Of a DNA stretch of 64,000 bases, positions 3,562-38,489 are shown piece by piece. The notes under the pieces were generated by a model. It worked only from the letters and a program-made list of their open reading frames with translations. It was not told where the DNA came from and made no database searches. Positions within the stretch are counted from its first letter, which is position 1; each line of letters begins with the position of its first letter. The stretch comes from a virus: positions 107,757-171,756 of IMG/VR virus record IMGVR_UViG_3300045972_000807; one strand, given 5' to 3'. The position numbers and the translations under genes were made by a program.

Positions 3562-3752
3562 AGCATCATACGGGCGAAATAAAACTTAACAACGATCTTT
3601 TGGGGAGCTTAACGATTAATGCTAAGCACATGGTTGATCTAGGCAAACCAAAAAGCCCTGAATGCCGCCATCAAAAGACTAAGTGGAATATTCAGTTTAC
3701 ATCGGGTACATGCCAAGACTGCGGTAAACATCTTGAAGCCTCTGATTACTAG
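3453..3752 (+). CDS. hypothetical protein with C-terminal Zn-finger-like motif
   Basis: GAGG SD; CRH...CQDCG. Confidence 0.65.
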   Translation: MAENTEQKKEPVDAAERYAKLAADNRYLTFLLKCYVEHHTGEIKLNNDLLGSLTINAKHMVDLGKPKSPECRHQKTKWNIQFTSGTCQDCGKHLEASDY

Positions 3753-3815
3753 GGCCTAACCGTAGATAGCAAACAATTTGAATGTTGCTATTCACCCACC
3801 AACCTTAGGAATTTT

Positions 3816-4184
3816 ATGACACAGCAAGGCATTAAGCTAGGAAACAAGTCCATTGAGACTTACGCCAGTAAGCACGGCGCGGTAGACCAAAATGGCAAGG
3901 TTGTGTTTCCCAGCTGGGAAAACCTACGTTCGCTTTACAAAAATCTGGTAACAGACATCGTTAACGATTTCGTCGCTATGTCTGACCAGCAAGACGAGGC
4001 AGCCGATCCCAGTGTCGTAACTGACATCGAACCCAAGCCTTCTACGCCTAGCGACCAATACTACGGCCCTGCAATGGACGCAGCTATCGGTATCCTTCAC
4101 TCGCAGGGATACGAATACCAGATGACCGAAAATGGTCTGGCTTGGGTTGTTACGACGCCCAAAGAAAACACCTTGGTGCAATAG
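3816..4184 (+). CDS. hypothetical protein
   Basis: AGGA SD; intact ORF. Confidence 0.7.
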   Translation: MTQQGIKLGNKSIETYASKHGAVDQNGKVVFPSWENLRSLYKNLVTDIVNDFVAMSDQQDEAADPSVVTDIEPKPSTPSDQYYGPAMDAAIGILHSQGYEYQMTENGLAWVVTTPKENTLVQ

Positions 4185-4402
4185 TGCTTACTGAGCAAGA
4201 CTCAGATGACTTAGAGGAACCTCGCATAGATTGGCAAGGCGCTCTAGGTCCAACGTTGATATTCAGCAAAGGTCGTAGGCAAGTGCTTAGTCGAGCAGAA
4301 CAGTTACATATAAAGCTGGGACTAATCGACATTGGGACGCTCGAGGCAAAGTACCGCATGTCTTTATTTGAGCGCGCTAAACTTTTTAATAAGGGTAGTT
4401 AA
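4184..4402 (+). CDS. hypothetical protein
   Basis: GTG overlapping the upstream TAG. Confidence 0.5.
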   Translation: MLTEQDSDDLEEPRIDWQGALGPTLIFSKGRRQVLSRAEQLHIKLGLIDIGTLEAKYRMSLFERAKLFNKGS

Positions 4403-4408
4403 CCTATT

Positions 4409-4594
4409 ATGACTGAAGATTTCCGTAATAGCAAGAAATTTGTTAAATGGGAAGAGTTGCAGGAAGAATACGCCAAGCGACAGGAAAGCAAAGAAGCCTT
4501 AAGGAAAAAAGCTATTACCTACATATCGGCGGTATTAGTTTCTACCCTTGTCGCCTTGACCGCAGTTCTTATCTACAACTACACCCTACACTAA
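4409..4594 (+). CDS. small membrane protein
   Basis: C-terminal hydrophobic helix YISAVLVSTLVALTAVLIY. Confidence 0.6.
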   Translation: MTEDFRNSKKFVKWEELQEEYAKRQESKEALRKKAITYISAVLVSTLVALTAVLIYNYTLH

Positions 4595-4612
4595 CACAAC
4601 ATAGGAACATAA

Positions 4613-5053
4613 ATGTTAGAAGCAGTACAAACTACCGAAGAAGACTTTGGTAACTCGCTTACCTTCCTTAACGCAACAGGCGACGTTACCATTACCTGGG
4701 ACGCAGAGAACGACGAGAAGATTAAAGCACTTGTCCGAGACAAGATGGCTAAGGGATACGTCTTCTTTACTCTCCGCAAGGTTGTTATCGAAGCCGTAAA
4801 GGTAAAGCGCAAGATCGGCGAAAAAGGCGTAGACACGATTACTAGCCTGGTAATCGAAGACGCCGAGTTTGATAAGCTGGTAAAGGACATGGACGACCGT
4901 GACCTTGCTACGCTTATGAAAGACCGTACGGCCCAGTTAGCCAAGCGTACAGGCAAGTCAAAAGAGTTCACCTCGATTGGCCGTGCCAAAGACGCCGACG
5001 AGGTTGTTAAGGGTAAGCAGGCACTAGCCGTAAGGCCAGTCGTCGGGGGCTAG
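4613..5053 (+). CDS. hypothetical protein ending in di-glycine (candidate ubiquitin/Pup-like modifier)
   Basis: AGGA SD; C-terminus ...ALAVRPVVGG-stop. CDS call is firm, function is speculative. Confidence 0.75.
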   Translation: MLEAVQTTEEDFGNSLTFLNATGDVTITWDAENDEKIKALVRDKMAKGYVFFTLRKVVIEAVKVKRKIGEKGVDTITSLVIEDAEFDKLVKDMDDRDLATLMKDRTAQLAKRTGKSKEFTSIGRAKDADEVVKGKQALAVRPVVGG

Positions 5054-5054
5054 T

Positions 5055-5843
5055 ATGCCCATAGTGGTGTCGCCTCCGCCTGTACAAGGTACGGGGGCAA
5101 TCTACTGGCCTACTACTGCTACTGCTAACAATACAGGCATGTGGTACACAGGTAGCGGAACTGTGTACACCACACCCTCAACGGTTGGCACATTTTACAT
5201 CCCGCCTCAAATAATAACTACAACCGCGGCGACATCCACGCAGTTCATAAGCCTATGTACGCCAACCGGCACATCGCTTACTAGCTGGATTTACTATCCC
5301 GTAAGCTCAGATTGGACGCCTACACCTGAGCAGTTAGCGTCCGAAGCCAGGTACAAAAGAGAGCAAAAAAGACTTCATGCGATCAAGGTGGAACGTGCCA
5401 AAGGTTCCATCAAGAGAGCACTGAAGCTAATGGACAACGTGGGCTTTGGCAACGAGGTTAAAGTGTTCCTTGGTGGAAGTGCTGTTGAGGTATCACACCC
5501 CGATAGCATGTTCAAATTCCTTTTGTCCAAGAGCCGTTACTCAGGCTTGATTGACAAGACGATAAACATCAGCGGGCACATGATACCGTACAAGCTAGAG
5601 CTCTACACAAAGACAGACGTGCATGTGGCCGACCTTTGCGTCTACATGCAGGACACGCCTATCCTGGATCAGATACTCGCCCTCAGCATGTTTATCAAGT
5701 CTGGCGACGAGGATTATATCCTGGAAAAAGCAAACTGGACAATTAAAGACAAAGACCCCGTGCTAAGGCAGGCGATTCTCTTGGAGAAGCCCTGTCTTAG
5801 CAACAAACTAAAACGAATTCCCTACAACCACCACCGACCTTAA
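5055..5843 (+). CDS. hypothetical protein: Thr-rich N-terminus, helical linker, globular domain with LC...P.LDQ.LA...E...AN motif
   Basis: Starts 1 nt after the stop of the GG protein, consistent with translational coupling. Confidence 0.75.
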   Translation: MPIVVSPPPVQGTGAIYWPTTATANNTGMWYTGSGTVYTTPSTVGTFYIPPQIITTTAATSTQFISLCTPTGTSLTSWIYYPVSSDWTPTPEQLASEARYKREQKRLHAIKVERAKGSIKRALKLMDNVGFGNEVKVFLGGSAVEVSHPDSMFKFLLSKSRYSGLIDKTINISGHMIPYKLELYTKTDVHVADLCVYMQDTPILDQILALSMFIKSGDEDYILEKANWTIKDKDPVLRQAILLEKPCLSNKLKRIPYNHHRP

Positions 5844-5863
5844 CTTTTCACTAGGAGCCTCCC

Positions 5864-6355
5864 ATGAACGATACCAACAGCGCAGCAAACTATACGCCCA
5901 TCCATAGCCTGGATTCCACCCCAGCCACTCTGGACGATTTCAAAGCCATCCCGTTGGCCGAGTACAACCAGTTCGTAAACGGCTACGCTCAGCAAGTTCT
6001 GGCCTTCATGGCCCTGGCCGACCAAGTGTCTGACAGCCAGTTCTCTGACAGCAACATTCCATCGCACGTCCGCATCGTTGTTCCTTCCCTCAACATCGAC
6101 CTGCACCTGCCGCTCAAGCTGGAAATCAATACCGTTGCAGACACCATCACCAGCTCCATTATGACCGCCAAGGTGTCGGCCGCCACGGTGCGCCTTTCCA
6201 CCGCAATCTCAGCGGCTATTCAAGCTGCCAAATCCGCAATTGACGCGGCCAATGACGCTGCGGCTTCTGAAGCGCGAAGCGTTGCCGAAGCCCAAGAAGC
6301 CGCGCCGTTACCCACGATTGCCGAGCAAATCTCGGACACAACTTCCGCAGTATAA
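5864..6355 (+). CDS. hypothetical protein with Ala-rich coiled-coil C-terminus
   Basis: AGGAG SD; C/G-ending codon bias. Confidence 0.75.
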   Translation: MNDTNSAANYTPIHSLDSTPATLDDFKAIPLAEYNQFVNGYAQQVLAFMALADQVSDSQFSDSNIPSHVRIVVPSLNIDLHLPLKLEINTVADTITSSIMTAKVSAATVRLSTAISAAIQAAKSAIDAANDAAASEARSVAEAQEAAPLPTIAEQISDTTSAV

Positions 6356-6392
6356 CTAAAGGACAGGGTGGTCAGGAGCCACCCTGTTTACT

Positions 6393-6650
6393 ATGACCAC
6401 AACACGCACACCCAAAACACAAGCTGAGATCCAAGAGTATCTTTTCAAATACGTTAAGGACAACATAGGTTTCTCTGGCGAGATCGACATTAACGCCCCG
6501 CTGGCAGACCAAGGCTTCGATAGCCTCGACAGCATCGAGCTGGTCATGGACCTTGAGGACGTGTACCTGATTGAAATAGCCGACGAGGTAGCCGAGAAAT
6601 GGACTACCTTGGCCGACGTTATTCTGTCTGTAGTAGCCTTGACAAAATAA
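6393..6650 (+). CDS. acpP: acyl carrier protein (AcpP-like)
   Basis: 85 aa, acidic; GFDSLDSIELVMDLED matches the ACP phosphopantetheine signature (G.DSLD.VELVM.LE); also EIADEVAEK.TT..D. Confidence 0.9.
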   Translation: MTTTRTPKTQAEIQEYLFKYVKDNIGFSGEIDINAPLADQGFDSLDSIELVMDLEDVYLIEIADEVAEKWTTLADVILSVVALTK

Positions 6651-6659
6651 GGAACAACA

Positions 6660-7070
6660 ATGTCTGACGAATCCTCCCAAGAACAAGAAGTTCTTTCTGA
6701 AGAACAGGAAAGTTCAAACGTGCTACCTACAGCTACGCCTTTTGCATCTGTCCGTGTGGACATGCTGGCCGATAGCCGAAGGCTGGAGAAGATTGCCAAG
6801 GTTGGCGAACAAACTGTATTCCCGCAGGACGTTGTCCGCATAGGTGAGTGGAAAGACTTGCCTAGCGAGTGGCCTGTCATACCGCATATCGTTCGAGGCC
6901 CAGCCCACTTCTGCGGCCCTAACCTCGTGGCTGTGCGCTTTGAGGACTCGGAAGGCTTTGTCTACTTCCCAATCCCTTCGGTAGTGGCAAACCTCTTGGG
7001 CGCAGCTTACGAAAAAGGCTCACGCACCGCGTTAGCTAACGCGCGTAAAGCGCTCGGACTCCGCCACTAG
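6660..7070 (+). CDS. hypothetical protein
   Basis: AAGGA SD. Confidence 0.7.
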   Translation: MSDESSQEQEVLSEEQESSNVLPTATPFASVRVDMLADSRRLEKIAKVGEQTVFPQDVVRIGEWKDLPSEWPVIPHIVRGPAHFCGPNLVAVRFEDSEGFVYFPIPSVVANLLGAAYEKGSRTALANARKALGLRH

Positions 7071-7080
7071 GACTTGAATC

Positions 7081-7488
7081 ATGCTTATCCACGGATACAC
7101 AGTCACACCTACTAACTGGAAACTGATATGGCCAGAGCCTGAAGTTACTCCGGAAGTCAATAAGGTTGAAGCCACCCCGGTTGCTACTGGGTTTTTATCC
7201 ACGTTCCTAAACCTGTTCCGTACCACACGAATGGGTGAAGTAGTTCCAGAGCAACCGCCTATACTACCTCAATTGGACTTGAACTCTGTGACCATCCAAT
7301 GCAGCGGTCTAGAGTTTGACACCATTGGAAAGCTGTACGACGTTATCGTCGAGGGTCACGCCTTCATCGGCATTTGGGCTATGTCTAAGAGTCCTGTGGA
7401 TTGGACTACCGGCCTTATGACCGTGGTGTGCAAGTGCTCTGACTACTTTGAGCTGTCTGAAGAAGAGCTGGAGCGAGTTTTGCCATGA
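7081..7488 (+). CDS. hypothetical protein
   Basis: AGGA SD. Confidence 0.65.
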   Translation: MLIHGYTVTPTNWKLIWPEPEVTPEVNKVEATPVATGFLSTFLNLFRTTRMGEVVPEQPPILPQLDLNSVTIQCSGLEFDTIGKLYDVIVEGHAFIGIWAMSKSPVDWTTGLMTVVCKCSDYFELSEEELERVLP

Positions 7489-11649: not shown

Positions 11650-13482
11650 CTAGAACGCTTGCCCACTGTTCTGGGCATAGCCGTCTAGAAACTTTTCAGC
11701 CAGGCGCTTTGTAACCGGCCCACCTTCACGGTCAATATGGTTACCCTCATCGTCAATGAGGTCGTCTTTGTCTCTGGGCTTAACGGTGTCCGGAGCCTTT
11801 GTAGGATCAGTGGGCGTATGCTCGCTTTCCGCGACTATAACGGCGCTCTGAATAGAGTTGTCCGTCCGCATCATCTTCTCTAAGTATGCAGGCACAGGCA
11901 AACCAAAGAACTCAAAGAACTGAACCTGTGAGGCAAAGTCGATGTAGTTCTTCAGAGAGGTCATAGGCTGCGTAGAGATGTTGCCTTGTGCATCAGTCTT
12001 TATGTGACCCAGCTTTTTGCCCACCATCGTGGCAATCTTCAAAACCATCTCAACGGCCTTCTTCTCGTCTACCTTCTTCCCAGCCATAGTCTCTTGGATT
12101 TTCTGGGCTTCGATGTTAAACAAGCCGGTGCCGGCCACGGTACGGAGTTTGTGGATGTTAGCCCCACCGGTCAAACTCTTGAAGTAAGACGTTACTGCCC
12201 CGTAGCGAACAGGCTTCCAGGTACCGTTTAGCTTTTCAATAGAGAACACAGGGTCTTTAGGACCTTTGCCCTCTACTAACTTTGCCATTACTTCGCAGAT
12301 GATCTTGTCTTTGGCGTTGCCAGGCTTCAATACAAACTTGAATTGGACAGCGTCCTTGCCTCGATAAGAGATCAGTACGCTGTGGTCAGGTCGCACAGTA
12401 ACGTGCTTGGCCAAGATGGAGCACATCCCGAAGCCTTGAGAACCCTCATTACCACCAGCAACGGAACCAGCACGGTCACTGCTAAGATACAGCAGTTCAA
12501 TAACAACCGAAGCGACCGCATTAACGTCACCATACTGAAACGGGCTCTTGACGTTCTGGAGCCACTTCTTGCGGTACTTTTCAATATTCTTGATAAGAGC
12601 ATTAGCTACCTCGTATTTGTGATTCCAGCTATTTTCAGAATGCTCTTTGGAATAGACGTAGGCGTATTCACCGTTAGGCTTATTGGCCTTGCAAATCCAG
12701 TCTGCGGTTCCGTCAGCTTTGGTCTTCATCGTAACCGTGGTGTACACGGGATACTTAGGAACGTTACCAAGCATTTTGCCGTCGTTGGTGTACCAGTTGC
12801 CTTCAGCATCAATAAGGCCAGTGAAGCCAGTAGGGATAGAGTGCTGAATGCCTAACTGGGCCAAATGGTCCAGCGCCTGCTGGCAAGGAACTGTTTTCTT
12901 TCCCGACTCTTTGACGTAGTTGCTAAGCTCATTCTTCCAGGACATGGAGTGAGCACGGCGCAACGCAAGGTACTGCTTATACAGATCAGGATCCTGCGTC
13001 TTAGCTTCCATTGCTTCATCCGGTGTTAGCACCGTCTTGCCTTTGAAGCCCATCTTGGCACAAAGGCTCTTAAGGTCTTTCTGGACCAACGTTTGGTCCG
13101 GAGCATCTTCCGTTATCATAGAACGGATGTAGGAAGACTCGCAACGGCTTGATATTTTTGCCAAGTATTTGTGGGAGCTACTGCTTTGATTCTTAAACCA
13201 CTTAGCAAACTGCTCAACCACATCAGCGAAAGAAGCCTTCGCATGAGGCTTCTTAGCGTACTCGTCAATCATCTCCTTCAGGGAGATAGACAGTGCCAAC
13301 AGGTCAACGCTTTCACCGCGGCTCATTGCCTGGATAACATCGTCCAGGTATGGCGTCATTGTGAGGAGCTCAGCTGACTTTGTGTGGGCTTCTTTGATGA
13401 TCGTAATACCCTCTTTAGAGGGCCTAGCGTTTCCTGAGATATGGTAAATCAGGATTACGTAGAGTAGTTCGACAAAATTCAT
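11650..13482 (-). CDS. type IB DNA topoisomerase with long N-terminal extension
   Basis: Catalytic pentad in order: DRAGS (R), YRGKDA (K), HKLRTVAGT (R), KKLGH (H), SLKNYID (Y). Confidence 0.8.
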   Translation of the reverse strand: MNFVELLYVILIYHISGNARPSKEGITIIKEAHTKSAELLTMTPYLDDVIQAMSRGESVDLLALSISLKEMIDEYAKKPHAKASFADVVEQFAKWFKNQSSSSHKYLAKISSRCESSYIRSMITEDAPDQTLVQKDLKSLCAKMGFKGKTVLTPDEAMEAKTQDPDLYKQYLALRRAHSMSWKNELSNYVKESGKKTVPCQQALDHLAQLGIQHSIPTGFTGLIDAEGNWYTNDGKMLGNVPKYPVYTTVTMKTKADGTADWICKANKPNGEYAYVYSKEHSENSWNHKYEVANALIKNIEKYRKKWLQNVKSPFQYGDVNAVASVVIELLYLSSDRAGSVAGGNEGSQGFGMCSILAKHVTVRPDHSVLISYRGKDAVQFKFVLKPGNAKDKIICEVMAKLVEGKGPKDPVFSIEKLNGTWKPVRYGAVTSYFKSLTGGANIHKLRTVAGTGLFNIEAQKIQETMAGKKVDEKKAVEMVLKIATMVGKKLGHIKTDAQGNISTQPMTSLKNYIDFASQVQFFEFFGLPVPAYLEKMMRTDNSIQSAVIVAESEHTPTDPTKAPDTVKPRDKDDLIDDEGNHIDREGGPVTKRLAEKFLDGYAQNSGQAF

Positions 13483-15324: not shown

Positions 15325-17289
15325 TTACCATTGAAGCTGTACGAATCCAGCTCCACCATACCCGTTAGGGTCATCTCGGCGTTCGTCACCAGCACCGCCA
15401 CCGCCACCTCCAAGTGTACCTGGGTATCCGTCATGCGGCTGGTAAGGAGAGCCTACCCCTCCTTGACCACCTGCACCGTACGACGCGCCACCGCCGCCAC
15501 CACCACCCGAGTAGTATCCAGAAGCACCTCCCGGACCGCCCAGTGCGTATCTAGTATTGCTTCCAGCATGACCTGGGCCACAGCCGTAGTCGTTACCGCC
15601 ACCACCCGCGGCACCTGCAGTAAGTATAGGTAACAACAGTCCTAAGCTAGACACTATACCACCTCCGGCTCCGCCGGCTGTATTTCCTTGCGCGCCACCG
15701 CCACCGCCGCCCAGGTACACGTCAACAGTTCCATACCCGTTAGTAATGCGAGTAGCACCACCCGCACCACCCGCACCACCGTTGCTGCCAGATGGACATC
15801 CACCGCCACCTCCACCAACAACTATAGTAAGAGTATCACCGGGGACAACCTTAAATCCACCCGAAGCTACTGCACCGCCACCGCCACCGCCTCCTCCCCA
15901 ACCAGAGCACGAAGTGTCGCAACAGTTTCCAGCACCACCCCCTCCGCCCCCACCGGAGGCAAGCAGAACTACGTTACGCATTTCTACAGGAACAGTTATG
16001 TAGTAGGTACCCGGAGTGTTTTGGTACCAGTATCCGCTAAGCTGTGTGCTGATCGTGTAGTCACCAGTTCTAGGGACTACAAGCACACCGTAAGGGTCAA
16101 TTGTGAGGCATGCTCTGCCTTGGTACCTGAATACAAGGTTGGCCCCTTCCTGAGTAACTGTCCAGTCTACGGTTCCTAGTGTCTTTAATGCTTGCTGAAC
16201 CGCAGTAACTGCGGCTTGAGCAGCAGCAATCTGATTAGTTACCTGCAAGTTCATGTCAGCCAGCGCTCTGTTCATATCGAACTTGGCCTGAGCCAACTGC
16301 TGATTGATTAAAGCCTCTTCATCGGTTAAGCTTTGATTCAAAAGATTCATCTCGTCAGCCAACGTCTGCGTCAACAAACTAATAGCCGAATTTAGCGCGT
16401 CTGTTTGCGCCTTATCTTTTTGTTCTATGACTGTCTCAAGGAACACATAGTCTGACAATGTGGTCTCACGAGCTAGCAACATCACCGTGGCACCTGCCGC
16501 CAAGCCTGTTATGGGGTACGTAAGGTTAGCCACACCTGGGCTGCCTGAAGCTATAACGCGAACGTTACCCAGCATATCCTGCATCAGGAAGTCACCTGGT
16601 AAGAACGCCGCGTCCATAAGATTAAACGCTGGGCCGTTAAGGGTAACGCCGTCATTTTCTACAGAAGCCAAGATTCCAGAGTCAACTTGAAGGTAGTTGG
16701 CTACGTTCCACTGCATTCCGTTAGACGCGGTAAGGAACAAGCTGTTGTTACCGTTAACCGCTTCCATAACGATAAGGGCGTCAGGCTGGCCTGGGAGAAA
16801 TCGCTGACCAGTTACGTTGTTGGTTGAGCCCACAACCTCAATTACGCCGGGTGTTCCCGTGATAACCTGAATAACCGAAGGCGACATTCCGATGTTCAGA
16901 ACACAATGAAAGGTAAGGGCGTTAGCAACACCCGAGGCAGCACTCGCCTTTGTCTGGAGTGCTCCGAAAGCTGCCAAGGCGAATAGTGTGCCGTCGCTGA
17001 GGTACAGTGCTATCTCACCAAACGTAAACGGGCCAGCGGTAGCCGGGACAATACAGACAATGTCCCTAGTTATTTCGCTAAGCATGTTCCAGCTTGAAGG
17101 AGCATCCGAGTATACCTCAGTGCCGTGAATGATCGTGTCATTCAACCCCGGAGTATAGTTGTACCCAGTACCCAAGGTGAACCTAGTAATGGATATAGAT
17201 AAGCCTTGACCTTGTGCCAGCATGGCTGCGTTGAGGCCAGCCTGCGTTATCGTAAACGCTGACGGTGCTATTGTGCTTGATGTAGCCAT
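15325..17289 (-). CDS. tail fibre (collar-fibre N-terminus, coiled coil, glycine-rich tip)
   Basis: ITQAGLNAA...GPFTFGEIALY...LFA baseplate anchor; polyglycine C-terminal domain. Confidence 0.85.
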   Translation of the reverse strand: MATSSTIAPSAFTITQAGLNAAMLAQGQGLSISITRFTLGTGYNYTPGLNDTIIHGTEVYSDAPSSWNMLSEITRDIVCIVPATAGPFTFGEIALYLSDGTLFALAAFGALQTKASAASGVANALTFHCVLNIGMSPSVIQVITGTPGVIEVVGSTNNVTGQRFLPGQPDALIVMEAVNGNNSLFLTASNGMQWNVANYLQVDSGILASVENDGVTLNGPAFNLMDAAFLPGDFLMQDMLGNVRVIASGSPGVANLTYPITGLAAGATVMLLARETTLSDYVFLETVIEQKDKAQTDALNSAISLLTQTLADEMNLLNQSLTDEEALINQQLAQAKFDMNRALADMNLQVTNQIAAAQAAVTAVQQALKTLGTVDWTVTQEGANLVFRYQGRACLTIDPYGVLVVPRTGDYTISTQLSGYWYQNTPGTYYITVPVEMRNVVLLASGGGGGGGAGNCCDTSCSGWGGGGGGGGAVASGGFKVVPGDTLTIVVGGGGGGCPSGSNGGAGGAGGATRITNGYGTVDVYLGGGGGGAQGNTAGGAGGGIVSSLGLLLPILTAGAAGGGGNDYGCGPGHAGSNTRYALGGPGGASGYYSGGGGGGGASYGAGGQGGVGSPYQPHDGYPGTLGGGGGGAGDERRDDPNGYGGAGFVQLQW

Positions 17290-17316: not shown

Positions 17317-19785
17317 TTAACTGATAGTGCATACGCCGTACACGCGGGAGGTATCGTTATTAACAAACGTAACGCCTACTCCCGGTGAGGACTTCCATGT
17401 TACTGCACCGCCACCGCCACCGCCGTGGACTGTGGTGTTACCGCCGGGTTTACCCCAGCCGCCTCCGCCGCCTCCGCCGCCACCTGAGGTAGACGAAGGA
17501 TCACCGCCGGCGGTGTTACCGGTTCCGCCAGCTCCAGCTGTAATGGTTTGACCCGACCAGGCTATGTAAAGAGCCCCCGGTGTTCCGCCAGAGCCTGGGA
17601 ATTGCCGTCCACCACCGCCCCCGCCTGCACCGTATATCCCGCCGCCTCCGCCTGCTCCACCACCCTTACCGGGTGACGCTAGTGCTCCTGAGGTCATGCC
17701 GGTTCCGCCCGGGCTGCCTATTGATCCACCTGCACCACCCTTTTGCTGTACCTTGATAATGGCATTGCTAATATCGTAGCTACCAGTCCCGCCAAGTCCT
17801 CCGCCTGCTCCGCCACCGCCACCGCCTTGGTCAGCCCAGACGATAGCTGCGCCGCCCCCACCACCCCCACCGATATACGCATTTGGATCGGTGTTGTCGA
17901 TAACCAGAGCTACGTTTGTGAATATAGCTGTGCCGCCGTTCTGCCCGATACCGTACCCGTTAAGGGCAAAGCCTAGCTGAGTGTTGCTTCCTCCTTGCCC
18001 ACCCTTTCCAGCTATAAAGCCGTGGTTGATAAGCTTTACCGTAGACCCGGGTGCAAACCTGTCTATGTATAGAGCAAATAGTTGAGGATTCTCTGAGTAC
18101 ACCCAAATACCAGGGGCCACGGTTACCGTAACAGAGCAAGCCGCAGTACCTACGCCTGTGCCATACTTTATAGCTAAGTTCTGGACTACACTGTAGTTCA
18201 TAGAGTGCTGAGAGATCGTTATCTCGTAAGCTGGCGCTGTTACTACCCCTATGCCTGTTGTGGATGCCGTTGGATACAAAGCTGTAGCTGCCTGAGTAGC
18301 TGTGATTACCGCACTACCCATCCCCACCACAGTGATCGTATTACCTGACACTGAAAGAATCGAGGAGTTGCTACTGCTGTACGACCATGCTCCGCCAGAA
18401 CTTGTGGTAGGCGGAACTATGGTAAACGGTGAATCACCAACCAACTTGGGAGGTATAACCAAAGGTCCCAGGTTGTTTGGTGGCTGGGTAACTGAGAACA
18501 CAGCCGATACAGTAAACAAACCGTAGCAGGCATCAGCCGCCTGCCTAGCCGTTATCGTGCAGCTCCCCACACCTACGACAGTACAGGTGCTACCTGAAAT
18601 TGATGCTACATTGGTATTACTGGACGTATAAGTCCACGCGCCCGACCCAGAAGAATCTGGCTGTGTTACTGGGAACGGTGCGGCCGTCAAGAGCTTACTA
18701 GGCACAGAGAAGGTAGTTGACGCGCCCAGAGTATTTATCTTGGCTACGACGTTTACTGTGGCACTAACAGCGTTGCCTGCAAATAGAGCAGTAGCTGCCT
18801 GAGTAGCTGTTATCGTGCAGGTGCCCAATTTCCCCAGAATAGAAACAATGTTCCCAGATACAGAAAGTATCGTAGTATCGCTACTGGTGTAAGTCCACGC
18901 GCCATCGCTGTTAGACACAGGCTGTGTTATCGTAAAGTCTGGGCTACAGAAGTACAGCGTAGGGTTAATAGAAAGAGCCCCTACGCTAGCTGCCTGGGTA
19001 GCCACGGTAAACGTAGCAACAGCGGAAGCAGGCCCGTAACAAGGGTCTCCCGACTTGGTAGCAGTTATGACGCACTGACCTGAAGCTATAGCGTTAACCG
19101 TATTGTTGCTTATGGTTGCTACATTGAGGTTGCTTGACGCATACGCCCAAGTGCCGCCACTTTGGGAAGTCGGCGGGGTTAGGGTCTGCGATGTGCCTGC
19201 GACCAGGTTAGGCACAGTGAAAGGTCCTAGCGAGTCTGTTTGGGTAGTTACCGTTACGTTAGCAGTTATTATTCCCGCACCCACAGTTGCTGTGGCTGCC
19301 TGGGTAGCACTAATTACGCATGATCCCAGACCCGTGGGAGTAGCAACATTCCCGTTTATAGAAATAACTATCGGGTTGCTACTGGTGTAAGTCCATGCTC
19401 CAGTGCTGTTGGACGTAGGTGTAGGTAGAGTAAACGGTACACTGCAAAGGTACTTGTTCCCAATCACAAAATTGCTTACGTGGTCAGGAAGTATCTGAGT
19501 AACCGTAACAAACGCGGTGGCTTTACCTGCGGAGAATCCTGTATGCGCTACCTGCATAGCACTTATGGTAACCGAACCGGCCACTAAAGCAGTAGCTGTG
19601 TTACCCACTATCTTTACGATGTAGGGGTCACTACTGACGTACGTCCAGGGAGCCGGGCTGTTACTCCTGGGGGGCGTCAGCGTTACAGGTCCTCCTCCAG
19701 CTTTTAAGGCGGGCAATATAAGCGGACCAAGCAAATTCGGAATGCCAGTTACCTTTACTCTGGGAGCTATTTGTATTGTTACCAT
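17317..19785 (-). CDS. fibre/adhesin with six Ig-like repeats and a T-even gp38-like glycine-rich C-terminal domain
   Basis: Six W.Y.SS...G.C.ITATQA repeats; LINHGFIAGKGGQGG...GGTAI...IGGGGGGGA. Confidence 0.8.
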   Translation of the reverse strand: MVTIQIAPRVKVTGIPNLLGPLILPALKAGGGPVTLTPPRSNSPAPWTYVSSDPYIVKIVGNTATALVAGSVTISAMQVAHTGFSAGKATAFVTVTQILPDHVSNFVIGNKYLCSVPFTLPTPTSNSTGAWTYTSSNPIVISINGNVATPTGLGSCVISATQAATATVGAGIITANVTVTTQTDSLGPFTVPNLVAGTSQTLTPPTSQSGGTWAYASSNLNVATISNNTVNAIASGQCVITATKSGDPCYGPASAVATFTVATQAASVGALSINPTLYFCSPDFTITQPVSNSDGAWTYTSSDTTILSVSGNIVSILGKLGTCTITATQAATALFAGNAVSATVNVVAKINTLGASTTFSVPSKLLTAAPFPVTQPDSSGSGAWTYTSSNTNVASISGSTCTVVGVGSCTITARQAADACYGLFTVSAVFSVTQPPNNLGPLVIPPKLVGDSPFTIVPPTTSSGGAWSYSSSNSSILSVSGNTITVVGMGSAVITATQAATALYPTASTTGIGVVTAPAYEITISQHSMNYSVVQNLAIKYGTGVGTAACSVTVTVAPGIWVYSENPQLFALYIDRFAPGSTVKLINHGFIAGKGGQGGSNTQLGFALNGYGIGQNGGTAIFTNVALVIDNTDPNAYIGGGGGGGAAIVWADQGGGGGGAGGGLGGTGSYDISNAIIKVQQKGGAGGSIGSPGGTGMTSGALASPGKGGGAGGGGGIYGAGGGGGGRQFPGSGGTPGALYIAWSGQTITAGAGGTGNTAGGDPSSTSGGGGGGGGGWGKPGGNTTVHGGGGGGAVTWKSSPGVGVTFVNNDTSRVYGVCTIS

Positions 19786-35187: not shown

Positions 35188-36429
35188 TCATACGGTTTCG
35201 TCAAACCTTTCGGGGAACTTCTGATGTAAAATTGTTTCAAGCTTTTTGTACGTAGGACTTTTTACGACTCTAACGGTTTCTTTGTCGTGTATTGCTAGCA
35301 TGAACCTAATACCGTTAGCTCTACATACCTTATTGGCTGCGTCAAACTTTGGCTTGTTACGCTTGTACTCGTTCTCCCGAAAGAACAAACCGTCGTACTG
35401 CTTAGCCTCAACCATGTACCCTTCACCACCCCAGACAATAAAAGCGTCTGGCTGATACAGAGACTGCTTGCCTTTTAAGGGGTTAATGTAGAACACTTCG
35501 GGCATATCTCCAAAGTCAGTAGAAACTACAATAGCACCAGCATCTTCTAGCGCGCTAAGAACTTGGGGCTCGCATCCTCGGCATTCATGCACATTACCGA
35601 ACTGGTCTGTCCATTCCTTAGCGTTCCGCTGAGAGTGCGTTACCTTTTTGGCTATTTCCGGGTTATGCATCTGATGCGCGTAACCTGTGCGCTCTAGCAT
35701 GCTAGCTTCACGGCGAGCTTGAACCTCACGTAGTAGGCACGCGTGTTTAACCCCGTGTCTTCGCATAGAATTTTCTATTTTCTTTGCGGTCATTCCTGGG
35801 ATACAGCTTGGGTTTACAACTCCTTTACCGTACCGCGACTCTAGCGCAGCTATTTGTCTTTGCTGGACCTCTAAGCTACACGACGGACTGTTTCCACCGT
35901 ATCTTATATTATTCGTACGCTTGAATTTTTCTAAAACGTTTTTGTTCTGCAGGGCGTGGTCTACTCCGCACCGCCTACGCATAGTTTTTATAATCTTATT
36001 CTTTACCTCGGGAAGCTGCATGGAGCATTTAACTCCATAGTTTTCCTGAAAGTAAGCTAAGCGTTTGCTGGCTTGTTCTTTGTAAAAACCTGACTCAGTG
36101 TGACCAACTTTACAGCACTCGTTGCTGCAAAACTTTAAAGGACCTTCAGTGAACCATAAGCAGGGTTTACCGCAAACGTCACACTTATTCTCCCGCATAA
36201 AGCGTATTGTACGCTCTATTATTGACACGGGAGTACTGGGGCAAAGAACTTGAAGCTGGTCTAAGAGCTTTGGGAATTTCTTGCTTAGTCGAACGAACCG
36301 TCCGTTACCTCTAGCTTGGCACTTGTCATCTAAACATGCTTTCCGCAAGGAAGCAAATAGCGTAGGCTTAACTGACTCAAGGCGACGGAGTGTTTTGTAT
36401 ATTTCAGAATTGGGTTGACGGCTGGCCAT
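35188..36429 (-). mobile_element. free-standing homing-endonuclease-like gene (Zn finger, YG repeats, C-terminal PD-(D/E)xK domain)
   Basis: CDVCG...FCSNEC; repeated ..YGV/YGG/HGV units; YQPDAF...VEAK; AT-richer codons than the flanking sheath and tube genes. Confidence 0.7.
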
Positions 36430-36461
36430 GATGTTCCACAGGTAGTTATGAAATCCTGTAA

Positions 36462-36519
36462 GGTCTCGGCTATCTTGACTACCCAAGAGCGCGGTTAATT
36501 ACTCCGCTTCACCGAGACC
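36462..36519 (-). promoter_or_regulatory. three-way-junction RNA structure upstream of the endonuclease gene
   Basis: GGTCTCGG/CCGAGACC enclosing GCGG/CCGC and TCTTG/CAAGA hairpins. Confidence 0.55.
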
Positions 36520-36533
36520 AACAGAAACTAGAA

Positions 36534-38489
36534 TTAAGCTGACATGCTTGCAATCGTATTTTCCGATATGGTCAAACCTTGCTTGCTAATGCCCAGGGTG
36601 AGGGCAATAACGCGCGTAGCCAGGATAGGTGTAATCAGAATCGTGATAGCCAAAATGCCGCTGTTAGCCAGCACATCCGGGTTGTTGGTCTTGTCACAGA
36701 TGACCTTGAAGGAACTGATGCCGCGACCGGATTGAACGCCACCGAGGTAGCTATTCAGGCCAGTGGTCAGTTGCATCTTCAGGATGTCATCCAGAGGTTC
36801 TTGCAGACCGTACAGCAGGTAAGCGTAAGAGGCGCGCTTGATGATGTTGCACAGGAAGCGAACGTTCAGGAACTGGAGTGCGCTGCTCTGTGAAGCCAAG
36901 GTAGCCTGTTCCCACAAGGCAATGCCTTGACCCGGGAACTTCCGCATGTAGTTAACCTGCGCCTGATACAGAGGACTGAAGTCGCCGTCTTCGTAGGTGT
37001 AGCGAACATCCAGAACCTGCGACAGCAGACCGCGGTTCAAGCCTGCGAAGGAGTACCAAGGCTGACCGACGTTGGTCGTATTGGCATACAGACCAGCCAT
37101 CATGCCCGACGGAGGAACAAACAACAGCTTGCCGCTGGTGGGATCAGACTCCAGCAAATCAGGAGTGAACAGCGCGGAGTACGAGCTATTCAGGTTCAGC
37201 GTGATGTTGCGATAGTCAATCGAGTCGGGACGAGATTGCTGACCGCTAGGCACGTCGAGGAACGCCACGCATTCAGCACGTTGCTGTGCGATAGCATCCA
37301 TGTGATCCTGGATGATCGGAGTAGCGCGACCTGCGTTAATCATCGTGTCGATCACATACAGCTGCTTATTGCTAAACACGCTCCATGCTTTGTTGATCGT
37401 AGCCGCAGTAGGCGCTGAGCCTGAAGTGCCGCCGGTCATAACGACGCTAGCCTGTACTGAGTTCAACACAGGGTACGTGCTGAGATGAGCCAGGTTCGAC
37501 ATAACCCGAATGTATTGGCTATACGGGTTGATGCGCTGAGTGGTTTCGCTTTGTGTGCCCAGATCGTCAGTGAAGTCGTTGAGGGTACAGGTAAACACTT
37601 CCACAGGAGTAGAGTTGCTGAGGCTCAGCTTGTAGACGCTCAGGGTGAAGCCTGTGCTGATTGTCAGCTGGGCTGTGCTGATAATCGGGCCGAGTGCTTG
37701 ATTGGGCACATTCAGTCCGTCATCGACCCAGGTATTGGAAGCCGTACCCACTTGGGCCAAAAGGCCCATGTTCTGGATAGCTTGTGTGCGACCGTATATC
37801 TTGTAACCGATGGAACCTGCAACAGGCGCCCAGGTAATGGTCACGCTTGACTGCGTAGGCGATGCGGAGATGATAACCGTAGCTGGAGTTGACACCAACG
37901 ACTCAGCACCGCTGCTATTGATACTCGACACCGCGTAGGTGTAAGTACCGGAACCCATCGAACCGCCGGACGTAGTGCCTGTGGAGATGATGGTGTCGGG
38001 AGTGGCTGGGTTCTGTGCTTGAACGCTAACCGCGTAGTCGCCGTTAGCGTAGCTACCAGGACCGTCAGCGGGATAGAACACGTAGACGGGAGTCTCACCG
38101 GAGCCCACGTAGTTCACCCAGTTGGGGTATTGCAGTTCGGTAAGGGACAGGCCGCCTGGGATAGAGCGCAAGGCGGTCATGCCGTTCACGTCTTGCAGCA
38201 TAACCATTGCAGCGTACTTGGCATCGTTCTCCACGCAACGGTTAGCCCAGAGAGCTTGGCCGAACTTGAAGTAATCGAGGCCCATGTACTGGTCAAAGGA
38301 AACCGCAGCGTTCGGATTGCCGTAGGCGTCCAAATAGCTTTGTGCGTCAGTCCACAAACGGGGGCCCAAAGGACCTTTGCCGGACACAACAACCTGTGAT
38401 GCAACAGCATTGGCAACTTGTGTCAATGTCTGCGACAGGTTAACTTCTTTGATATAGACGTCAGACGCCTTGGATGCGAGATTGCTCAT
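36534..38489 (-). CDS. tail sheath protein
   Basis: VYIKEVN.S; VPPSG; PWYSFAGLNRG; LNVR.L; C-terminal F.V.CD..NN. Confidence 0.95.
   Translation of the reverse strand: MSNLASKASDVYIKEVNLSQTLTQVANAVASQVVVSGKGPLGPRLWTDAQSYLDAYGNPNAAVSFDQYMGLDYFKFGQALWANRCVENDAKYAAMVMLQDVNGMTALRSIPGGLSLTELQYPNWVNYVGSGETPVYVFYPADGPGSYANGDYAVSVQAQNPATPDTIISTGTTSGGSMGSGTYTYAVSSINSSGAESLVSTPATVIISASPTQSSVTITWAPVAGSIGYKIYGRTQAIQNMGLLAQVGTASNTWVDDGLNVPNQALGPIISTAQLTISTGFTLSVYKLSLSNSTPVEVFTCTLNDFTDDLGTQSETTQRINPYSQYIRVMSNLAHLSTYPVLNSVQASVVMTGGTSGSAPTAATINKAWSVFSNKQLYVIDTMINAGRATPIIQDHMDAIAQQRAECVAFLDVPSGQQSRPDSIDYRNITLNLNSSYSALFTPDLLESDPTSGKLLFVPPSGMMAGLYANTTNVGQPWYSFAGLNRGLLSQVLDVRYTYEDGDFSPLYQAQVNYMRKFPGQGIALWEQATLASQSSALQFLNVRFLCNIIKRASYAYLLYGLQEPLDDILKMQLTTGLNSYLGGVQSGRGISSFKVICDKTNNPDVLANSGILAITILITPILATRVIALTLGISKQGLTISENTIASMSA

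Follow-up and report, generated by a model that had tools for sequence, protein, structure and literature searches.

Ubiquitin-type protein conjugation between phages and bacteria has been studied so far as a bacterial defence, in the Bil system (BilABCD), in Cap2 of the cyclic oligonucleotide-based antiphage signalling system (CBASS) and in Bub, and always with an activating enzyme (E1) as part of the system. In Bil, whose E1:E2:Ubl complex has been solved for Ensifer aridi (PDB 8tyz and 8tz0; PMC10557695), a separate small ubiquitin-like protein (Ubl) with a C-terminal Gly is served by a small E2 carrier enzyme, which has a catalytic Cys, lacks the canonical eukaryotic motifs and, in the absence of an E3 ligase, is proposed to use a variable segment for target choice. 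CBASS Cap2/Cap3 and Bub (PMC10097602, PMC11601596) are likewise prokaryotic conjugation pathways, acting on a C-terminal Gly or Ala with E1/E2-like chemistry. A further point of comparison is provided by the sulfur-carrier pairs MoaD-MoaE, ThiS-ThiG and TtuB-TtuA, in which a small beta-grasp protein ending in ...GG places its tail into a dedicated partner and the activating E1 (MoeB, ThiF and TtuC, respectively) is encoded elsewhere. Here we describe a pair of adjacent genes, A and B, on a 64,000-nucleotide stretch of viral DNA (hereafter, the window), which constitutes the last 64 kb of the 171,756-base IMG/VR record IMGVR_UViG_3300045972_000807; a first-pass annotation, made from the sequence alone, had proposed that the two genes form a minimal modifier-plus-ligase module, based on the Gly-Gly end of the first protein and a Cys in the second. 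Our computational follow-up suggests that A may be a ubiquitin-like modifier and B its E2-like carrier. What is new is a phage-borne, two-gene architecture drawn from two orphan families and devoid of both E1 and deubiquitinase (DUB); the full-text literature searched, including a comparative survey of jumbo phages by the Aravind group (PMC7824862), does not describe the A-B pair.

Both open reading frames of the pair are real and were located on the plus strand within positions 4613-5843 of the window, among a block of small co-directional genes, with the following features:

4613-5053, plus strand: gene A, an open reading frame of 146 amino acids (aa).
5033-5050, plus strand: C-terminal tail of A, R141-P-V-V-G145-G146, a conserved end and predicted interface with B.
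5055-5843, plus strand: gene B, an open reading frame of 262 aa with its ATG at 5055.
5055-5303, plus strand: residues 1-83 of B, the N-terminal region, Thr/Ser-rich and predicted to be disordered, with a predicted local distance difference test score (pLDDT) < 50.
5304-5840, plus strand: residues 84-262 of B, the conserved domain, with pLDDT 80-93 and a predicted E2/RWD-like order of elements.
5637-5639, plus strand: codon of Cys195, the candidate catalytic cysteine (C in 93/93 homologs).
5667-5735, plus strand: the Asp205-Glu219-Asn227 stretch of B (Asp205 at 5667-5669, Asn227 at 5733-5735; each residue in 93/93 homologs).

Protein A ends in ...ALAVRPVVGG (a terminus written as ...KQALAVRPVVGG), followed by a TAG stop at 5051-5053, and gene B is translationally coupled to A across a 1-nt gap, the single base T at 5054 between the stop of A and the ATG of B. 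Protein B holds ADLCVYMQDTPILDQILAL...E...ANW, as the first-pass annotation had quoted, and Cys195 sits within the quoted stretch ADLCVYMQDTPILDQ.... In the public annotation, B (P0026, 234 aa) begins at Met29, so that positions 5055-5138 are left out; since nearly all homologs have a conserved 'MP...' start directly after the stop of A, we take 5055 to be the true start. The same protein is also found on a 229,765-base contig.

The Gly-Gly end is close to invariant across the family of A. A word-based search returned 25 homologs at 54-95% identity, with a terminal GG in 25/25, and a profile search covering 1.84 billion representatives recovered 351 clusters (50% identity) at an expectation value (E) <= 0.001, 171 of them at E <= 1e-10. 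Termini were read in 177 family members: 158/177 end in GG and 8/177 in AG, three others end in SG, WG or EG, and the remaining non-GG members mostly look like fragments or mis-called ends. Family members are 118-150 aa long and share the end motif h-V-A-V-[RK]-P-x-x-G-G-COOH, with other near-invariant positions at G23, D24, W29, K44, G48, F51, F52 and D95. All 16 loci examined encode an A that ends in GG, and yet the Gly codon pairs vary synonymously between loci (GGG GGC, GGT GGA, GGT GGT, GGA GGC, GGC GGC, GGC GGG and GGA GGA), all three stop codons are used after them across the loci compared, and the A-to-B distance in these loci ranges from a 1-nt overlap to 45 nt, with a 4-nt overlap in locus L025. 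Because Gly codons, stop codons and spacing all vary, the GG is selected at the protein level. We also considered that it might be a by-product of the ribosome-binding site of B or of a recoding site and rejected this idea, given that codons, stops, spacing and the relative frame of the two genes vary.

Searches of curated collections gave protein A no name: it had no significant match in Pfam, PHROG, NCBIfam or PADLOC, and its profiles (A1, A4) had no match among PDB sequences. Further, neither the window DNA nor protein A matched any of 50,697 deposited phage records, and a first single-protein scan of viral contigs was similarly without a match. Fused forms were also sought. The longest of the 150 best A relatives has 273 aa, with N-terminal extensions that contain no domain; on the B side, the word search found no B-domain protein of >= 460 aa, which is weak evidence, and one distant homolog (L008) has 537 aa.

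Protein B is equally orphan, with no Pfam family at E <= 1 and no significant match in PHROG, NCBIfam or PADLOC; the search for its homologs returned 81. Residue conservation was counted over 93 homologs, the most distant ones included, and four residues, that is, Cys195, Asp205, Glu219 and Asn227, were present in every one (93/93 each). The H-P of the B motif 'SHPDS' is less constant, with His148 in 86/93 and the Pro in 83/93, and both are lost in distant homologs. Conservation is concentrated in the C-terminal ~150 residues, whereas the first ~100 residues are hypervariable across the family: they are Thr/Ser-rich and predicted to be disordered in the window's clade, and give way in distant homologs to globular regions that span 200-370 aa and contain no Pfam domain. 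The B homologs have 418 aa in Phosso, 537 aa in L008 and 364 aa in L009.

The two genes travel together. In 16/16 evaluable loci, the window included, the gene immediately preceding a B with the Cys motif is an A with a GG end; the others were reached starting from B homologs (L001, L003, L005, L023-L026 and L029), starting from A homologs (L008, L009, L010, L019 and L020) or by BLAST of cultured phages (Phosso, L006; Atu_ph07, L011), and a 17th locus (L007), whose contig ends inside the downstream gene, stands outside this count. When the surroundings of the pair (+/-5 kb) in the window were compared with those in three distant loci, A and B were the only genes in common, which indicates that they make up a two-gene module, and the A-B pair moves as a unit. 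The impression in the first-pass annotation that the pair recurs in other phages turned out to be true, and includes two cultured carriers, Agrobacterium phage Atu_ph07 and Sinorhizobium phage Phosso. All carriers with long contigs are phages of 130-490 kb, and the window itself belongs to a jumbo myophage, with genes for tail sheath, tail tube, a T4-like major head protein, tail fibres, an NAD-dependent DNA ligase and thymidylate synthase. The genomes of 185,579 species of bacteria and archaea, scanned twice by pattern with a sensitivity limited by the patterns used, yielded no relative; hence, the pair seems, as far as sequence comparison reaches, to be restricted to phages.

In Atu_ph07, gp231 corresponds to A (AUZ95013.1) and gp230 to B (AUZ95012.1), a mapping of gene products to accessions that is anchored on the major capsid protein gp215 (AUZ94997), gp238 (AUZ95020) and gp240 (AUZ95022). 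Neither gp230 nor gp231 is among the 131 virion proteins of this phage (PMC6102473, Table S5), and this absence points to a role of A and B inside the infected cell rather than in the virion.

To assess how A and B might fit together, the complex of B residues 84-262 (45-row alignment) and A (142 rows) was predicted in one job of three runs. The interface score (ipSAE) was 0.76, 0.79 and 0.79 (median, 0.79) as opposed to 0.00 for the best of three controls, namely two with A swapped for unrelated proteins and one with B swapped, all of which scored 0.00; in the benchmark behind the score mark, the mark was reached by 58/80 solved complexes and 2/110 mismatched pairs. At least 90% of contacts agreed between runs, and partner pLDDT was >= 68. 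The confidently predicted interface comprises, on the B side, residues 114-131 (in part), 172, 177, 195-202, 205 and 208-227 (in part) and, on the A side, residues 17, 19-24, 50-57 (not every position), 92, 94, 112-124, 138 and 140-146. In the model, the tail of A lies over the Cys195 loop, beside the invariant Asp205 and Asn227, which are both in the interface (205, 225-227), while Glu219 is not in the interface list; the strand-1/2 loop, strand 3 and last strand of A are predicted to pack on the helix of B that follows the Cys. In the closed state of a ubiquitin-charged E2 (E2~Ub), the Leu8/Ile44/Val70 patch of ubiquitin rests on the crossover helix of the E2, and the predicted pose appears to resemble this arrangement. 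The model thus supports A-B binding without proving it.

With these results, four expectations of the first-pass annotation have held up: the GG end is near-invariant (25/25 close homologs; 158/177 family members, plus eight AG), the cysteine it pointed to is invariant (93/93), gene adjacency is kept (16/16), and in the modelled complex the GG tail comes to lie on the Cys loop (0.79 vs. 0.00). Its overall reading of the pair as modifier plus ligase finds partial support: the computational checks it had suggested all turned out favourably, and the weak fold matches described next lean the same way, while the word 'ligase' is best kept as a putative label.

The fold comparisons provide leads rather than proofs for both proteins. 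The single-protein model of A, from a shallow alignment, is of low confidence (pLDDT 45, rising up to 68-79 in the complex runs); its predicted element order, strand-strand-helix-strand, an insert of ~70 residues, then helix-strand-GG, would be beta-grasp-like. About 40 of 50 structural matches of A are beta-grasp or Ubl proteins, albeit at VIA-align Z scores of just 2.7-4.2, and include SUMO1, ubiquitin, MoaD (1fm0_D, 3rpf_D), TtuB (5gha_E), CysO and the Caldiarchaeum Ubl as well as PB1, UBX and ULD domains. The alignments cover 55-70 residues spread over 9-146 and omit the middle, which implies an insert at about 54-123. The model of B 84-262 (pLDDT 80-93) consists of a long helix (91-131), five strands and then four helices, with Cys195 directly after the last strand (190-194) and ahead of helix 203-216. 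Foldseek searches of this model against PDB and BFVD gave nothing at E <= 0.001, the top BFVD match (E 2.5e-3) being an uncharacterised 397-aa protein of Atu_ph07, equal in length to the B homolog there. Exhaustive alignment (VIA-align) gave Z scores of 4-6.3, with about half of the top 50 matches in the UBC/RWD/UEV superfamily (kinetochore RWD domains, GCN2 RWD, VPS37A UEV, Atg10, UFC1 and many eukaryotic E2s). The Bil E2 is among them (8tyz_C, Z 5.2; 8tz0_C, Z 5.3), at a root-mean-square deviation of 3.3-3.6 Å over 95-96 residues. For comparison, the proven Bil E2 resembles eukaryotic E2s at 3.0-3.4 Å over 93-99 residues (PMC10557695); that is, the modelled likeness of B to the Bil E2 is of the same degree as that of the Bil E2 to eukaryotic E2s.

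Set against the closest known systems, the pair shares with Bil a separate small protein with a C-terminal Gly, a small partner with a (candidate) catalytic Cys and no canonical eukaryotic motifs, a variable segment that may choose targets in place of an E3, and a modelled match of B to BilB (Z 5.2-5.3). It differs in that Bil has an E1 (BilD) and a JAB-type DUB (BilC), neither of which was found for the A-B pair; the Bil Ubl often needs trimming, whereas A is made ready with its GG; and Bil is host-encoded, whereas A-B is phage-encoded, shows no sequence similarity to Bil and no PADLOC match, and lacks the CEHH motif of BilB in B. Cap2 and Bub both contain an E1 (fused to an E2 in Cap2 and to a peptidase in Bub), and Bub forms oxyesters, in contrast to the invariant Cys that is the candidate nucleophile in A-B. 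The resemblance to eukaryotic ubiquitin and its E2 (UBC) lies in the closed state predicted above, with the strand-1/2 loop, strand 3 and last strand of A on the helix after the Cys of B and the tail running to the Cys. In contrast to the eukaryotic proteins, B has no HPN at E2 spacing (its HP(D/E) is 47 residues before the Cys and not universal), A has 118-150 aa, with the ~70-residue insert, neither protein has a UQ_con or ubiquitin Pfam match, and neither E1 nor E3 accompanies them. Finally, the sulfur-carrier pairs share with A-B a GG tail directed to a partner, on a small protein that in the case of A may be beta-grasp, and an E1 encoded elsewhere, but differ in that the N-terminus of B is hypervariable and A-B seems to be phage-restricted; no MoaE, ThiG or TtuA likeness appears among the fold matches of B, although such a list does not exclude one.

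The simplest account of the GG end, the beta-grasp-rich match list of A and the invariant Cys placed after an E2/RWD-like sheet is that A is a modifier and B an E2-like carrier. The lack of an invariant His, the strict gene coupling, the predicted complex with the tail at the Cys and the variable 'adaptor' region of B fit this account as well; in particular, His148, which is not universal, fits an E2 (which has no catalytic His) better than a Cys-His peptidase. We therefore see about an even chance that A is a ubiquitin-like modifier and B its E2-like carrier, activated by the host and forming a dedicated module of jumbo myophages. Under this hypothesis, the C-terminal carboxylate of A would be adenylated by an enzyme from outside the phage genome, most likely a ThiF/MoeB-type E1 of the host or the E1 of a Ubl-based host defence, and A would be handed to Cys195 of B as a thioester. 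Asn227 and Asp205 might then take oxyanion and lysine-activating roles, as do the HPN Asn and a nearby acidic residue of E2s, and A would be moved onto lysines of targets picked by the hypervariable N-terminus of B, which would make B an E2/E3 hybrid at work within the infected cell. A more specific version, in which the pair is a minimal viral Ubl conjugation system that parasitises a host E1 (MoeB/ThiF or a defence E1) and tags host or phage proteins, with the N-terminal domains of B as interchangeable target selectors, is a tentative proposal that we consider possible rather than probable.

It is important to note that several observations weigh against the modifier and carrier hypothesis. 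First, neither A nor B matches any Ubl or E2 family by sequence, and the fold evidence is weak, given a pLDDT of 45 and Z < 4.3 for A and, for B, Z values of 4-6, a range the tool calls common, in which frataxin, NdhV, PsiB and CapZ tie with the E2 and RWD matches. Second, B lacks the canonical HPN motif that E2s carry ~8-10 residues ahead of their Cys. Its H-P-[DEN] motif follows strand 2, precedes the Cys by 47 residues and is missing from distant homologs; the part of HPN could be taken by Asn227 and Asp205, both invariant and located where the tail is predicted to bind. Third, the predicted interface is large (~100 contacts), as would be equally fitting for a lasting heterodimer and for a short-lived E2~Ubl state, and the prediction may have reproduced its pose from E2~Ub complexes of known structure. 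The main obstacle, in our view, is the missing E1, because a free carboxylate forms no thioester without activation, and every Ubl conjugation system known to us (eukaryotic, Bil, CBASS Cap2 and Bub) includes one. The first-pass annotation had seen no E1 in the window, and this holds for the window's whole 171-kb record and for whole genomes: six-frame searches at E <= 1, which gave a signal in all 14 control genomes, found no ThiF-family E1 in that record or in six complete or nearly complete carrier genomes, as follows:

Phosso, 469 kb, complete.
Atu_ph07, 490 kb, complete.
G002, 345 kb, with terminal repeats, 100%.
G003, 286 kb, 100%.
G005, 277 kb, 100%.
G006, 189 kb, 94%.

Prok-JAB was likewise absent from both records tested (the window's record and Phosso) and AMP-binding adenylating enzymes from the four records tested, and no ATP-grasp enzyme consistently co-occurs with the pair. 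The R2K ATP-grasp ligase (PF14243) was considered as an obligatory non-E1 activator and rejected, since it is found in Phosso, Atu_ph07 and G002 and is absent from G003, G005 and G006. Phosso (L012, L014, L016) and Atu_ph07 (L013, L015) carry 2-3 copies of PF14243 and G002 (L021) one above the family cut-off, whereas no control bacterial genome scores above the cut-off; this is a feature of the lineage, not one tied to the A-B pair.

Alternatively, it is possible, if rather unlikely in our estimate, that the pair is a decoy or inhibitor, in which A-B poses as a charged E2~Ubl, or as a Ubl substrate, and binds and blocks the E1 of the host's Bil, CBASS Cap2 or Bub, or is wastefully charged by it, with the variable N-terminus of B adapting to each host. 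The absence of E1 and DUB from the phage genomes searched, the predicted large and stable-looking interface and the apparent restriction of the pair to phages (in the two pattern scans of 185,579 species genomes) would all be expected of such a decoy, and the hypervariability of the N-terminus of B is what an arms race predicts. Further, the cultured carriers infect Rhizobiales, and the Bil complex of known structure is that of Ensifer aridi (PMC10557695). Nonetheless, a pure binder has no obvious use for the invariant Cys/Asp/Glu/Asn set, and jumbo phages of great diversity have retained the pair, whereas hosts carry Bil and type II CBASS sporadically.

It is less probable still that A and B form a heterodimer of an unrelated function (e.g., a regulator, an assembly chaperone or a host-takeover factor), with the GG fitting a narrow groove and the Cys being structural or redox-active. 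All fold matches are below the level that the tools call reliable, and the missing E1 and the lack of a sequence link to Ubl or E2 families are readily accommodated under this scenario. It would, however, require the GG end, the Cys after the last strand, both lists of fold matches and the E2~Ub-like pose to coincide by chance.

We consider similarly improbable, and rank last but one, a sulfur-carrier pair, in which A, like MoaD, ThiS or TtuB, would be thiocarboxylated after adenylation by host MoeB/ThiF, and B would thiolate a nucleic acid or a small molecule via Cys195. The ...VRPxxGG tail resembles the ends of MoaD and ThiS, and MoaD, TtuB and CysO are among the fold matches of A. MoaD-MoaE and other sulfur-carrier complexes have the GG tail inserted into the partner, and the housekeeping nature of the host E1 in such pathways would explain its absence from the phage. 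On the side of B, however, the fold matches include no MoaE, ThiG, TtuA or PP-loop enzyme, and the fold comparison and Pfam search together returned no MoaE, ThiG, TtuA or CysM-type enzyme, although absence from such a list does not exclude them; B shows no ATP-binding motif and no Pfam match; its variable and often disordered N-terminus would be unusual for a metabolic enzyme; and no linked sulfurtransferase was seen in the flanks of the pair. Finally, it is very unlikely that B is a DUB-like cysteine peptidase acting on A or on host Ubl conjugates, since, despite the invariant Cys with an invariant Asp and Asn nearby and the tail of A predicted at the Cys, A is encoded already with its GG end and leaves nothing to trim, no His is invariant (His148 in 86/93, lost in distant homologs), and no papain-like, OTU, UCH or JAB fold appears among the matches.

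If A and B do conjugate, as the modifier and carrier hypothesis has it, a virus could run ubiquitin-like tagging on a borrowed activating enzyme, which would represent a new, E1-less architecture of ubiquitin-type signalling that is widespread (hundreds of sequence clusters) and would provide a very small system for studies of E2 chemistry and target choice. If the pair is instead a decoy, it would open a new class of counter-defence, aimed at Ubl-based immunity. In both cases, a testable function is now available for two families of 'hypothetical proteins' from hundreds of uncultured jumbo phages and two cultured ones, Atu_ph07 and Phosso. For such tests, it should be noted that diGly proteomics is unsuited to A conjugates. 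Arg-Pro bonds resist trypsin, and with a tail of the form ...K-QALAVRPVVGG the tryptic remnant left on a target lysine would be ~11 residues long (QALAVRPVVGG-type), not GG.

The surroundings of the pair differ completely between phages. In the window, a 163-aa Ala-rich protein is encoded downstream (5864-6355), and in Phosso a small terminase subunit lies downstream of the pair in convergent orientation (L006, 3443-4024). An acyl carrier protein gene (PF00550, E 3e-9; PHROG 5934) lies 550 nt downstream of B in the window (6393-6650, plus strand), and no AMP-binding loader for it was found in the window's record; we considered this gene as a partner of the pair and rejected it, as it is not kept beside A-B in other phages. 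A scan of positions 3700-7200 for promoters and terminators returned sites no commoner than in shuffled sequence.

With respect to the phage itself, IMG/VR labels the 171,756-base record (G000) 'provirus', 65% complete; the 'provirus' label is doubtful, because the record has the genes of a lytic-type jumbo myophage and the 229,765-base contig mentioned above carries the same protein. Elsewhere in the window, the catalytic core of a 610-aa protein (11650-13482, minus strand) is that of a eukaryotic-type topoisomerase IB (PF01028, E 7e-17), an enzyme unusual for a phage, and a homing-endonuclease-like open reading frame (35188-36486, minus strand; PHROG 3339) lies within the tail-gene block, just downstream of the tail sheath gene (36534-38489). 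The tail-fibre genes at 17317-19785 and 15325-17289 (minus strand) encode a Gp38-adhesin-like domain and a glycine-rich domain with a tail-collar N-terminus, and these domains may help to guess the host.

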